DNA of 38,350 nt from an uncultured Syntrophaceae bacterium (GCA_964556675.1 CAZKYN010000001.1:1-38350), one strand, 5' to 3'. Shown: positions 24,421 through 29,989, counted from the first letter of the stretch. Numbers and translations are program-made. Notes: generated by a model not told the origin, from the letters alone.

Positions 24421-24536
24421 AAGAGACGGTGTCAGGCAGATAACAGATGTGAAGAAACGATTTACTGGAATGAGAGCAGGTGGGACCGCAGGTTGGCCTT
24501 GCGGTTCTTCAGATTGAGCTTTTTCCGGATATTGTC
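24421..24536. repeat. 116-bp direct repeat, left copy (orphan copy of the PAS-LuxR gene 3' end plus 41 nt downstream)
   Basis: I compared it base by base with 29874-29989 and saw no mismatch. Degenerate similarity continues about 30 nt further left (ATAACCGT...AAGAGAC). Confidence 0.9.
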
Positions 24537-24570
24537 CGGATCATAGGGAAATTAAACTCATTTTTATTCG

Positions 24571-24601
24571 AAAATCAAAAAGGGCGGCAATCCGCCGCCC
24601 T
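24571..24601 (-). terminator. Rho-independent terminator of the cassette operon
   Basis: On the minus strand the structure is AGGGCGGC-GGATT-GCCGCCCT followed by TTTTGATTTT, starting 14 nt after the stop of the 746-aa gene. Confidence 0.7.
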
Positions 24602-24615
24602 CTTTCAGGAAGCGT

Positions 24616-26856
24616 TCAGATGAAATCAGCCGGAGTATCTATCATGCGAAATTCGTGTTTCTCCCATTCTTCCACATCAAAATTTTCCAGGTAAAATAGC
24701 ATGGGCCTCCAATCGCAGCTTTCGCCGCATCCAAAATAATAATTTTGGAAATGCCTGTTCAAGGAAATAATTACCTGGTTAAAAGACGGGTACTCGCCGT
24801 TTTCATCTGTCAGGATGACTCTGTTGTCCGGAGAGGCATTATGCGTCAAAAATTGGTGTGTTGCATACCAGAAGTATTCATAATTGTCGTCACATTTACT
24901 ACACCGGCAACCCATAGGCTCTCCGCACCAACCCCCAAACCATTTACCTCCGCGATTCCAGCATTCGGAGTAATCACCCGAAACATGATACACATATTTT
25001 ATCTTATTTATTTCTTTGATGTGGGGTTCTCTGAAGCAGGGATACACAGCGTAACTCCCATCCCATGTCTTTTCATGCACAAACGTATACTGCAGAACCT
25101 TGAGCCCCGAAAAATCAAAAACATCATCATTGCCCGGGACTGAGGATAGCGTCCGGCCTTTTTTCCATCCAATCCTCTGGACGCCAATCCCATCGACATT
25201 TACAGCGGACTGTCTGAAACTGATTTTTTTTCCCGAATAGTCGGCTTCGCATGGGGTTTCATACTGATTTATGTATACGCAACCCGGTCCGCTTGACCTT
25301 GTCCAGAAGCTGAACAGATTATAGCCGTTGCCCCCTTCATAACTGAGATAAATTGTCGCGGGGAACTTGACGCCCTTGAATGGGCCCACTTCATAGGGTT
25401 TATCCGAGGTAGATACAATTACCGTTTCCTTGCCGTCCGCGTCTACAAGTTTGACCTGTTTTGCATATTTGGGGGTTATCCCGTTGCATGTGATGGAAAT
25501 ATAAAACTCGTCGGAGCAGAATGCCACATTACCCGCAACAACGGCGTTGCTTTCGCTTCCCATCCTGCCCTTGAATACCACCAGGAACTTTGCGCTCTGC
25601 TCGGCATCGGTGGGCGCCTTTTCAAAGGTGAAATTCGGGCTCTTGTTGTTTCCGGAACGGGTCGAGCCCAGCGCATAACTGCCGCGCCACACGCATGTCC
25701 TCTCAAGGTTCTCATCCGTATAAAAGATCTCAAATGAGCCTTCCAGGTCTTCGCAAAAGTCGTTCACGATCTGAAATTCATGTTCGGAATCTTCCGCTGC
25801 GACCACGGCGATATTTCCCCGGAAAAAATAATTCAGCAGACCCGCCGAGTATCCGGCGGCCCTGGGCAGCAGTTTTTGCCCATAATCGCGGTTGCACGCA
25901 TCGTCCAGTATCAGGCAATGGCGCTGCAGACTCGGCCAGAAGCCCAGGTATATATAAAGCCTGCCCGCGGCGGCAAAATGCTCGATTACTTCTCCATTCT
26001 GTATCTTTCTGAAATAAATCCTTTTATAACCGTTCCCGACATCTTCCGCGTACTCCTGTGTGTCCGCCCGCCGGGGCAGCGGCTGATAGTGCGCATCCGA
26101 GGCATTGAAGCTTTCGGTGAATATGGTGTCGTCGCTTGCGAAATTGGCATTCGTGTATTCCGCCAACCCCTGGTCCGTGTAGACCGAAGGGTTGGAGCCG
26201 TTGTATTGACCCGTATCGAAGAACCGCGTTATCGGGTCGAACCCGTACGGGGCAACGCTCGTATCGACTGCCGGGAACACGACCAGGGATATTCCAGTAT
26301 TATAATTGGCCCATTTCTCGAAGGAGTCGCTCAAAGGATGGGCGTCGTTTCTCACGTGGGCCGGGGACGCGCAGTCCTGCACGAGGTGCATGACCTGCCC
26401 CAGGGATTTGAACATCCCGGCAAAGTGGCTGTCGCGGGCTGATTTACTCTGTGATGTCAGGGCATAATAGAAACTGTCCCGGGCGGCCTTCCAGGAGAAT
26501 TCGTTCTTATAGTCCTGCGCCCATACGGAAGATGACTCCCCGCTCATGAGATCATTTAAACCGGCAACAGGCCACGATTTGAGAGGATTGTGGAAGTGAT
26601 TGAGAGGCCGGAGGTAGTTATCTTCTTCCTTGGAGCCGGTTTTGAGCCACTCATCTAATGTTTGTCCATTAAGAAGATCTAAATTCGAAATTGATAGTTT
26701 TCTCAAGAAAATCGAATCTGATATTATTGAGTTAGAGAAAGCTAAATAAGTTATTTCTTTATGGGTGGTATCTATAAAAGAATAGGCTTCAGAATTCCAT
26801 AAAACTGGAACAGAGATTAGGACATGAATTATTAAAAATAATCTTCTTTTTTTCAT
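24616..26856 (-). CDS. secreted zinc-dependent phospholipase C / P1-nuclease-superfamily-like protein with a large uncharacterised Cys-rich C-terminal region
   Basis: 746-aa ORF with a signal peptide (…WNSEA-YS). HFHNP and MHLVQDCASPAHVRNDAH (H-x3-D-x5-H) parallel HFYDP and HYLGDVNQPMH of Bacillus cereus PLC. Residues of about 350-746 have no motif I recognise and end in CWNRGGKWFGGWCGEPMGCRCSKCDD...GCGESCDW. The start overlaps the upstream stop (TAATG). Confidence 0.75.
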   Translation of the reverse strand: MKKRRLFLIIHVLISVPVLWNSEAYSFIDTTHKEITYLAFSNSIISDSIFLRKLSISNLDLLNGQTLDEWLKTGSKEEDNYLRPLNHFHNPLKSWPVAGLNDLMSGESSSVWAQDYKNEFSWKAARDSFYYALTSQSKSARDSHFAGMFKSLGQVMHLVQDCASPAHVRNDAHPLSDSFEKWANYNTGISLVVFPAVDTSVAPYGFDPITRFFDTGQYNGSNPSVYTDQGLAEYTNANFASDDTIFTESFNASDAHYQPLPRRADTQEYAEDVGNGYKRIYFRKIQNGEVIEHFAAAGRLYIYLGFWPSLQRHCLILDDACNRDYGQKLLPRAAGYSAGLLNYFFRGNIAVVAAEDSEHEFQIVNDFCEDLEGSFEIFYTDENLERTCVWRGSYALGSTRSGNNKSPNFTFEKAPTDAEQSAKFLVVFKGRMGSESNAVVAGNVAFCSDEFYISITCNGITPKYAKQVKLVDADGKETVIVSTSDKPYEVGPFKGVKFPATIYLSYEGGNGYNLFSFWTRSSGPGCVYINQYETPCEADYSGKKISFRQSAVNVDGIGVQRIGWKKGRTLSSVPGNDDVFDFSGLKVLQYTFVHEKTWDGSYAVYPCFREPHIKEINKIKYVYHVSGDYSECWNRGGKWFGGWCGEPMGCRCSKCDDNYEYFWYATHQFLTHNASPDNRVILTDENGEYPSFNQVIISLNRHFQNYYFGCGESCDWRPMLFYLENFDVEEWEKHEFRMIDTPADFI
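26170..26580. repeat. 411-bp perfect direct repeat, copy in the full-length PLC-like gene
   Basis: Identical by eye to 27424-27834. The offset is 1254 bp (418 codons, in frame). Both copies are G+C-rich and are flanked by A+T-rich sequence. Confidence 0.85.
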
Positions 26857-28711: not shown

Positions 28712-29632
28712 TCAGAAATTCCTGATTTTCCATAGGCCGCTTCTGTCTCTAGCGAATGTAACGGGATACGACATCTTGGTCCCATTCTCGTTAACCAGGC
28801 TGTTGCAGACGGCATAATCCTCTCTCATGTAAACAAATTGCAATTTTTCAGGTTGCGCGAAGATGTCCGGCAGTTTGTCCGTCAGGACAAAAAAGATCGT
28901 CTGATAACGGGGGCGGGCTTCATCTTCAAGGCACGACACGGCGCCCGAAATATCCTTATTTCTCAGGGCGGAGGTAAATTCGTTCCACTTGCTCTCCAGC
29001 GCCGCAACTACTTCCGAAGTTGCTGAGATTATTATTGTCATCTGGTCCGAGGCGGAATTTCGGGCACGGTCGGGCGCCTTCGCATTCACTGTAAAAAGTC
29101 CCGGGCTGGTGTATGTCCAGGCAATCTCGCCGCGCTTTTCCGAAGAGTAATCGAATTTGCCGTCCCCATCGAAATCGACCTCGTAAAGCGCCGCCGGGCT
29201 GGGAGACGTAAAGGAGAGGGAAAAGCTGACCGTGAGCGGCGGGGTACCGCTGAAGACGTTGGCTGACAAAATCAGGGGTTGTGTTGCGCCCTCATGATAA
29301 ACCGTTATGGCCTTTTCGGCGCTGTTTCCATTGGACTCGACTATTTTGGCAAAAATTATGTTTTCACCGCGGTTGCGAAAAGGAACATATACGAAGAATC
29401 TGTTGCCCTGAACAGCTGCCGGGATGTCATTCACGGAGAGCCCGAAATTGGGCGATGAGGAGGTGAACTCTCCTGAAACGAAAGCCTTGTCCCGGTTGAT
29501 GCGGCTGCCGTCAGCCGGCGAGGTGATTGAGATTGTGGGGGATGACGATCCTCCCGAAGCTGATTTGGAACACCCTGGTGAGAATAAAAACGCTGCGCAT
29601 AGAATAAGCGCCAATACGAAATTTCTGCCCAT
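28712..29632 (-). CDS. lipoprotein with a PKD-like domain and a C-terminal NTF2/SnoaL-like region
   Basis: I prefer the ATG at 29630-29632 (MGRNFVLALILCAAFLFSPGC), preceded by GGGAGGG, over the track start at 29713. PLTVSFSL...DFDGDGKFDY...YTSPGLFTVNAKA indicates a PKD fold. The NTF2-like assignment for the C-terminal about 110 aa is tentative. Confidence 0.65.
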   Translation of the reverse strand: MGRNFVLALILCAAFLFSPGCSKSASGGSSSPTISITSPADGSRINRDKAFVSGEFTSSSPNFGLSVNDIPAAVQGNRFFVYVPFRNRGENIIFAKIVESNGNSAEKAITVYHEGATQPLILSANVFSGTPPLTVSFSLSFTSPSPAALYEVDFDGDGKFDYSSEKRGEIAWTYTSPGLFTVNAKAPDRARNSASDQMTIIISATSEVVAALESKWNEFTSALRNKDISGAVSCLEDEARPRYQTIFFVLTDKLPDIFAQPEKLQFVYMREDYAVCNSLVNENGTKMSYPVTFARDRSGLWKIRNF

Positions 29633-29739
29633 AACGACCCTCCCTGATTCATAATCCTGATAAATGTCTTTCTCTGATGCGAATTGCCCGCCAAATAACA
29701 TCGCATAAATCATTATGTCAACATAAAGTTATCTTGTCC

Positions 29740-29774
29740 TTTAACGCAAATACGCAAAGCAGTATTGCGTTAAA
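29740..29774. promoter_or_regulatory. imperfect inverted repeat TTTAACGCAAATAC-N8-GTATTGCGTTAAA
   Basis: The 13-bp arms have one bulged A. The repeat lies about 140 nt after the PAS-LuxR stop and about 110 nt upstream of the PKD lipoprotein start. It could be a LuxR-type operator or a terminator stem without a U-tract. Confidence 0.35.
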
Positions 29775-29873
29775 CAGCACGCATGAAGAGTACATACGAA
29801 CCTGGTAAGGGTTTTTAAAAAGGGGGGATTTGTAGAGTTTGTAGGGGCTGAATAACCGTCTGGAGCCTGAATA

Positions 29874-29989
29874 AAGAGACGGTGTCAGGCAGATAACAGA
29901 TGTGAAGAAACGATTTACTGGAATGAGAGCAGGTGGGACCGCAGGTTGGCCTTGCGGTTCTTCAGATTGAGCTTTTTCCGGATATTGTC
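29874..29989. repeat. 116-bp direct repeat, right copy (functional 3' end of the PAS-LuxR gene plus 41 nt)
   Basis: Identical to 24421-24536. Positions 29915-29989 encode ...DNIRKKLNLKNRKANLRSHLLSFQ*. Confidence 0.9.

Follow-up and report, generated by a model that had tools for sequence, protein, structure and literature searches.

In Helicobacter pylori, the repeat that flanks the cag island is the 3′ end of the neighboring glutamate racemase gene (glr), and cag-negative strains have an empty site with a single repeat copy; we know of no integrase within the island. The direct repeats of the cag island are 31 bp long (PMC3266215). Cis-mobilizable elements (CIMEs) have kept attL and attR and lost their integration genes (PMC6323972), and orphaned gene 3′ ends have been proposed to arise in type VI secretion system (T6SS) and Rhs effector arrays via homology-facilitated illegitimate recombination (HFIR) (PMC5361080). 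Here we analyzed a locus of related appearance in a 38,350-nt stretch of DNA from an uncultured Syntrophaceae bacterium (GCA_964556675.1 CAZKYN010000001.1:1-38350; hereafter the window), whose genome context is Syntrophaceae/Syntrophales. In this locus a minus-strand operon for exported proteins, hereafter the cassette, lies between two perfect 116-bp direct repeats, one of which forms the 3′ end of the adjacent gene for a LuxR-type regulator. Judging from the sequence, we consider it probable (roughly 0.6) that this attachment-site-like pattern was produced by ordinary host recombination around a resident operon rather than by a new mobile element.

Like the cag island, the locus consists of a block of accessory genes between direct repeats, and it too is an islet without a recombinase beside a duplicated gene end. 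In contrast to that island, it spans 5.3 kb rather than 40 kb, its repeat is 116 bp long, and its cargo appears native to the locus, being present in a sister lineage without the repeats and matching its orthologue in composition. The locus resembles CIMEs as a repeat-flanked segment at a gene 3′ end lacking integration genes of its own, but it differs from them in that we found no evidence of the repeat as a recombinase substrate, the cargo is syntenic in a relative, and no partner integrative and conjugative element or integrase was present at the site in the related loci examined. In T6SS and Rhs effector arrays an orphaned end allows a new C-terminus to be swapped in, whereas here recombination between the repeats would spare the regulator and remove the operon, by a mechanism that we infer. 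The likeness to scars of duplications and merodiploids lies in the sharp, perfect repeats of local sequence, the novel joints lacking recombinase sites and, at this locus, a second joint left by a tandem duplication.

The repeat, here termed R, is a 116-nt string that occurs twice in direct orientation without a mismatch, with a start-to-start distance of 5453 nt (Table 1). The preliminary description of the window had reported this repeat from reading alone, and the alignment gave 116 of 116 identical positions at both locations; a perfect pair of 116-mers within 38 kb cannot be reached by chance. Its account of the two copies was also borne out, the right one being the functional end of the intact regulator gene with a short downstream tail and the left one an orphan of the same gene end, lacking an in-frame start codon and lying about 30 nt beyond the strong intrinsic terminator of the last cassette gene. 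The edges of R are abrupt, as the adjoining 160-200 nt aligned no better than shuffled sequence (210/500 and 65/500 shuffles reached the observed score). A larger and older duplication extending beyond R had seemed possible by eye from a string ('ATAACCGT...') apparently common to the left of both copies, and it was rejected when the alignment proved to be at chance level. R contains no symmetric or palindromic core, and the ends of the cassette carry no terminal inverted repeats (456/500 shuffles scored as well). Relative to the empty allele described below and to the arrangement in the sister lineage, the only novel joints are the two edges of the left copy, termed J1 and J2.

An allele lacking the operon exists in a closely related strain. 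The direct junction of 29874 to 24420, which the preliminary description had put forward as the expected empty site, was recovered at 99.9% identity in a 2602-bp metagenome contig of the Joint Genome Institute (JGI) (Ga0248168_1039385, from JGI 3300022666; L001), found by an exact-protein look-up of the regulator. This contig aligns to window positions 32288..29874 and then directly to 24420..24234, and is thus free of the operon with a single R; it differs from the window by 2 single-nucleotide polymorphisms in 2415 bp, none of them in R, and the divergence between the filled and the empty strain is 0.1-0.2%. A neighboring contig from the same sample covers window positions 21860-24237, and in SRR6476076 the left flank matches the window with 100% identity. 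Exact-protein look-ups of four cassette proteins (c746, c234, c181 and the 306-aa form of c333) returned no record in the gene index that includes this sample, which makes it unlikely that the empty-site contig was mis-threaded from a filled genome during assembly. An exact-protein look-up of a CCG-domain protein encoded near the regulator likewise returned no record, and a 24-mer of R gave no match in a metagenome contig collection, which evidently lacks the empty-site contig as well.

Assembly error could instead have created the filled arrangement, through an empty chromosome combined with a free circle or tandem array, through the threading of two strains, or through polishing that rendered near-identical repeats perfect. 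The filled arrangement is seen in this window only, the public gene index has no entry for the cassette proteins, two perfect repeats (R and a 411-bp repeat within the cassette) lie within 5.5 kb and are hard for short reads, and public contigs of the species break near 24170-24237. However, J2 and a joint inside the cassette (27420/TTT/27424) are novel sequences that a de Bruijn assembler cannot invent, and the position of the operon beside the regulator is independently confirmed in the sister lineage. We judge an artefact to be very improbable.

Comparison with this sister lineage, represented by contigs from three sequencing runs (L016-L018), suggested that the operon is a long-standing resident. 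In two of the contigs (L016 and L017) a regulator 92.6% identical in amino acid sequence is followed directly by an orthologous trio of genes, encoding in L016 a 306-aa Glucodextran_B protein (63% identical to c333), a 207-aa small protein (36-42% to c181 and c187) and a 752-aa large protein (63% to c746); the third contig holds the trio only and stops short of the regulator. The sister lineage has neither an internal duplication nor a copy of the regulator end on the far side of the trio. A metagenome-assembled genome (MAG) of the Syntrophaceae with a regulator 92% identical in amino acid sequence (L002) lacks both the cassette and the neighboring region X, and its regulator stop codon lies 19 nt from that of the o254 orthologue. 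At the DNA level the regulator of the window is 87.7% identical to that of the MAG and 87.1% identical to that of L016, whereas the latter two share 90.1%, giving the grouping (window,(L002,L016)). These values place the window as the outgroup with the trio on both sides of the root, so that a single loss in the MAG is a simpler history than gain on two occasions at this site.

For the pair of the window and L016, synonymous divergence (dS) amounted to 0.64 in the regulator, 1.0 in c333, 1.9 in c746 and 1.6 in the MamS-like gene that lies on the other flank of the regulator; by this measure the operon and the genes around it have diverged together. Between the same two loci the promoter-proximal intergenic sequence is conserved, and the 41-nt tail of R could be aligned to neither L002 nor L016. 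At more distant loci, tblastn searches with window proteins found no cassette after the regulator orthologue in 11 further GTDB and 28 metagenome loci. These approximately 40 loci have regulator identities of at most 79%, apart from C-terminal fragments of 86% and 73%, and the weakest of them are PAS-domain relatives only. In the nine GTDB loci whose first downstream open reading frame (ORF) was compared with Pfam, three such ORFs encode C_GCAxxG_C_C redox proteins and one an M48 peptidase, the rest match no family, and none encodes a recombinase.

The preliminary description had favored an element that integrated into the gene end and regenerated it. The attachment-site-like topology and the empty site on which that proposal drew are both real; integration of an element is not supported, given that a recombinase is missing and that the trio is syntenic without the repeat in L016 and L017. 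Pfam and NCBIfam searches detected no integrase, transposase or other recombinase in the cassette ORFs or in any larger ORF of the window, extending the earlier impression that none could be recognized, and ARAGORN found no tRNA gene in the window. The lack of a recombinase in the window excludes membership in the island or integrative and mobilizable element classes, while CIMEs by definition have no integrase. Of the features of a site-specific integrative element, the locus has the direct repeats with a regenerated gene 3′ end and the single-copy empty site, and it lacks a recombinase gene in or near it and cargo foreign to the locus. By comparison, the locus has features of a scar made by the host, namely ordinary neighboring sequence, sharp edges, novel joints and no recombinase-site architecture, together with independent signs of duplication or conversion in the locus (a 1.25-kb duplication with a 3-nt filler and the 411-bp perfect tract).

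Base composition does not set the cassette apart as a recent import. Its G+C content is 46.7%, compared with 56.5% in the left flank and 53.5% in the right flank, and exact counts reproduced the earlier hand counts of A+T-rich and G+C-rich patches (33.3% at 26881-26940, 33.3% at 28201-28260 and 63.3% at 26221-26280). The orthologous genes in L016 are similarly patchy, with 43% in the small gene, 38% at the 5′ end of the large gene and 55% in the segment that follows, indicating that the A+T-rich patches are intrinsic to these genes rather than a mark of recent import. The preliminary description had held that finding the same five genes at this locus in relatives, without the repeat and with uniform composition, would speak against an insertion, and this is largely what L016-L018 show, with the same patchy G+C. 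It had also conceded that a duplication junction would look alike, which is the reading that we favor. Two other origins were rejected: a transposon with a target-site duplication, since such duplications are 2-15 bp whereas R is 116 bp, terminal inverted repeats are at chance level and there is no transposase, and a plasmid, phage or viral origin, since the collections of plasmids, phages and viral contigs held no relatives of the cassette.

R might nevertheless be a true attachment site, with the regulator 3′ end as the target and the cassette as a decayed CIME or as an element on which an integrase from elsewhere in the genome acts in trans. The regenerated gene end, the perfect repeats and the exact empty site would all fit such a history, CIMEs are an accepted class (PMC6323972), and at one distant locus the trio lies beside transposase genes and a toxin-antitoxin pair, so that the module moves between genomes over long time scales. 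Against this stand the absence of a recombinase in 38 kb, of an inverted-repeat core in R and of terminal repeats, the orthologous trio at the same site in L016 without the repeat, the lack of a cassette after the regulator in the approximately 40 other loci and of a recombinase among the first downstream ORFs in nine of them, and a composition and dS that fit a resident locus. We therefore consider an attachment site very improbable.

From the repeat, its joints, the empty allele, the synteny, the composition and the lack of a recombinase, we infer an order of events and the enzymes involved as follows. The three-gene export operon, not itself mobile, would have been the downstream, co-directional neighbor of the regulator since before the split from the nearest sampled relatives. 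The left copy of R would be a recently displaced 116-bp copy of the regulator 3′ end, made by host recombination or replication machinery. In every model that we considered, J1 and J2 would have formed by illegitimate joining and the remainder by homologous recombination. The lack of divergence between the copies (0/116) and the 0.1-0.2% divergence of the filled and empty strains indicate that the event was recent, and the 27420/TTT/27424 joint and the 411-bp perfect tract indicate that the locus does undergo both illegitimate and homologous exchange. By either route, homologous recombination between the two copies can now remove a segment of exactly 5453 bp, or take the excised circle back in, and in both cases the regulator stays intact.

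The left copy may have arisen in situ, an origin to which we give somewhat less than even odds. It could be a templated 116-bp insertion made via two template switches; alternatively, a tandem duplication of the operon together with R would have created J2, and deletion of the first copy J1. A recA-type crossover between the copies of R would later have yielded the operon-free allele of the empty-site contig. A second, unlikely route is loss followed by regain: a deletion forming J1 would have given the empty state, and the operon would then have been regained from a conspecific still holding it beside the regulator, either by HFIR, with the regulator and its 41-nt tail as anchor and J2 landing inside the anchor, or by Campbell-type integration of a circle carrying the operon and R. 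The empty-site contig would then represent the pre-insertion site, which is close to the earlier proposal but without a dedicated recombinase. This route is consistent with the existence of the empty allele in a strain only 0.1-0.2% diverged from the window, with the 41-nt tail, which cannot be aligned to L002 or L016, so that the donor would belong to the same species, as fits the 116/116 identity, and with the proposal that HFIR leaves orphaned gene ends (PMC5361080). The internal 411-bp perfect tract, flanked by sequence with dS of 1-2, also resembles the stacking of two divergent alleles by a like event. On the other hand, homology in the regulator and region X would allow a double crossover to restore the operon without duplication, orders of magnitude more commonly than HFIR, the donor allele was not found, and it is hard to see how a non-replicating 5.45-kb circle would pass from cell to cell. 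Both routes share one predicted precursor allele, and the empty-site contig represents either the deleted or the pre-insertion state.

Several points weigh against ordinary recombination around a resident operon. The window is the sole witness of the filled arrangement, and neither the precursor allele, with the operon beside the regulator and no left copy of R, nor any further cassette-bearing contig of the species was found on record. The illegitimate steps are read from the topology, and no microhomology is evident at J2; the short matches seen there, a CCG that is offset and an ATCCGGA repeated nearby, both lie away from the joint. For ancestral residence we draw on two related lineages, one that has the trio and one that lacks it. 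The cassette proteins share 36-63% amino acid identity with their counterparts, compared with 92.6% for the regulator, and may thus have been acquired independently at the same site, and a recombinase may be encoded outside the 38-kb window.

Table 1. Features of the repeat-flanked locus and positions of the three-gene module. Positions refer to the window unless a contig is named.
Feature	Position	Strand	Description
Region X	23200-24420	-	Two ORFs, 23290-23757 and 23723-24100, for small lipoproteins that are weakly paralogous
Joint J1	24420/24421		Left edge of R-left, region X to the 41-nt tail; continuation into region X identical to that in the empty-site contig
R-left	24421-24536		Orphan copy: last 24 codons of the regulator, stop and 41 nt downstream
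Joint J2	24536/24537		Regulator codon 24 from the end to the base just past the operon terminator; novel junction with the distal cassette end
Intrinsic terminator of the c746 gene	~24573-24605	-	GGGCGGCGGATTGCCGCCC followed by a T-run
c746	24616-26856	-	Secreted, 746 aa; N-terminal ~445 aa predicted zinc phospholipase-C-like domain and beta-sandwich; Cys-rich C-terminal part without a confident model
Tandem-duplication unit 2	26170-27420		First 411 bp (26170-26580) identical to 27424-27834
c187	26856-27419	-	Small secreted protein, weakly similar to CarboxypepD_reg; ATG probably at 27398; paralogous to c181
Tandem-duplication unit 1	27424-28670		Joined to unit 2 via the 3-nt filler TTT (27421-27423)
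c234	27400-28104	-	Truncated paralogue of c746 residues 1-~229; ~91-227 identical to c746; ends at the internal duplication joint
c181	28101-28646	-	Small secreted protein, weak CarboxypepD_reg similarity; 64% identical to c187
c333	28712-29713	-	Probable lipoprotein, Glucodextran_B/PKD-like Ig domain; likely start at 29632 giving 306 aa, as in the L016 orthologue
Intergenic/promoter region of the cassette	29633-29873	-	Gene-adjacent part, including TTGACAT, conserved with the orthologous locus in L016; the conserved stretch lies near 29650-29740
Left edge of R-right	29873/29874		Intergenic/promoter region of the cassette to R
R-right (functional copy)	29874-29989		Last 24 codons of the regulator and stop (75 nt) and 41 nt downstream
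Regulator	29915-31207	-	430 aa, PAS-PAS-GerE (LuxR-type); upstream of the cassette, co-directional
Three-gene module	window 24616-29632; L016 2230-6015; L021 1714-6006; L022 4094-10892

Analysis of the cassette revealed a simpler gene content than its ORFs suggest. The preliminary description had read it as five genes in one minus-strand operon; every substantial ORF between the copies of R is indeed on the minus strand, but the five ORFs reduce to three gene types and an internal tandem duplication of 1.25 kb, which accounts for there being two small genes (c181 and c187) and a truncated large one (c234). The joint of this duplication reads ...TTCAATTCCAAG/TTT/CTGGTCCG..., and its two units are perfectly identical over 411 bp and only 55-84% identical elsewhere, with dS of approximately 1.0 between the small genes and 2.0 over the 5′ 90 codons of the large gene. 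The 411-bp tract, identical amid dS of approximately 1-2, must therefore be a recent product of gene conversion or recombination. The duplication as a whole looks like gene conversion, or like two divergent alleles of the small gene and the first 90 codons of the large gene stacked on each other. A crossover between the 411-bp copies would exchange the N-terminus and the partner protein by a single deletion. All the nearly invariant His/Asp/Glu columns that the phospholipase-C-like domain has in c746, the last of them E180, are kept in the truncated c234. At 234 aa, about the size of the phospholipase C (PLC) of Bacillus cereus, c234 may work as an enzyme on its own and not be a dead remnant.

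More than 1000 homologues share the N-terminal ~445 residues of c746; the few that carry an organism name are mostly from Nitrospirota or Thermodesulfovibrionia, with one from Desulfobacteraceae. At the sequence level c746 matched no family in Pfam or NCBIfam and no PDB chain, even with a 40-sequence profile, and PF00882 was not matched. In an AlphaFold model built on 40 homologues, the predicted local distance difference test score (pLDDT) exceeded 90 for the greater part of residues 30-445, and Foldseek matched residues ~28-445 to 2wxu, 1olp and 1ca1 (probability 1.0) and to 1ah7 (TM-score of 0.50 on the target). The N-terminal part is thus predicted to have a zinc phospholipase-C-like fold. 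Its nearly invariant columns are H32, D79, H89, H157, D161, H167, H173 and E180, with a spacing that we take to be that of the PLC zinc ligands. In predicted fold and in these columns c746 resembles the alpha-toxin of Clostridium perfringens and the PLC of B. cereus, but it adds beta-sandwich and Cys-rich C-terminal regions and has no sequence-level match to them. In addition, unlike these PLCs, proteins of the c746 type were always accompanied by two partner genes in the loci examined.

Other phyla hold this module of a Glucodextran_B/PKD lipoprotein, a secreted beta-sandwich protein of ~180 aa and a large phospholipase-C-like protein as well, at loci unrelated to the present one. Its neighbors in L021 are a toxin-antitoxin pair and transposase genes of the IS200 and DUF772 types, and in L022 they are housekeeping genes; no flanking repeats were found around the module in L016, L021 or L022.

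The surroundings of the regulator point to other possible targets. On its upstream side the window encodes redox or iron-sulphur proteins, namely CCG/4Fe-4S, DUF134, NifB-like FeMo-cofactor domain, ParA/NUBPL and rhodanese proteins, and in three of the distant loci (L004, L006 and L013) the C_GCAxxG_C_C redox gene comes next after the regulator, in L013 with a pyridine-nucleotide disulphide oxidoreductase gene after it. ORFs of similar size follow the regulator in L008-L010, that of L008 having no Pfam match. The original regulon of the regulator may have been redox-related rather than the cassette.

Region X, on the other side of the cassette, is shared by the window and the empty-site strain. 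Its two ORFs, of 125 and 155 aa, are co-directional with the operon, and a look-up of the 125-aa protein returned the known JGI contig only. A remnant recombinase or excisionase was ruled out here, as the ORFs are small paralogous lipoprotein genes with no family match. Three independent public contigs of this species end within 70 nt of one another in this region (L020 at 24170, L001 at 24234 and L019 at 24237), perhaps owing to reduced coverage or to a polymorphism; L001 and L019 come from one assembly and overlap by just 4 nt. Elsewhere in the window, a 54-nt direct repeat with 87% identity occurs at 1936-1988, in the spacer after a GNAT acetyltransferase gene, and at 19261-19314, near the start of an outer-membrane efflux gene.

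The locus represents a clean natural case of an accessory operon between duplicated gene ends for which both the filled and the exact empty alleles were recovered, which is rare. It indicates that an attachment-site-like topology can arise around a resident operon without mobile machinery, a caution for island predictors that use flanking repeats and dips in G+C. If ordinary recombination alone explains the locus, its wider impact is small, and the by-products are more intriguing: a mosaic tandem duplication within the operon and, brought up by the search, a widespread, uncharacterized three-gene module whose large protein is phospholipase-C-like in predicted fold. A more far-reaching idea, which we regard as improbable, is that the operon is a pop-out/pop-in module that needs no recombinase of its own, RecA-dependent excision giving a 5453-bp circle with one R that re-enters conspecifics with the empty site. 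Re-entry could proceed by the circle or by linear DNA from lysed cells, via single-crossover or homology-facilitated recombination. If this were true, a secreted phospholipase-C-like system would be a reversible presence/absence polymorphism beside its regulator, and the internal 411-bp repeat would do likewise for alleles of the N-terminus and the partner protein.

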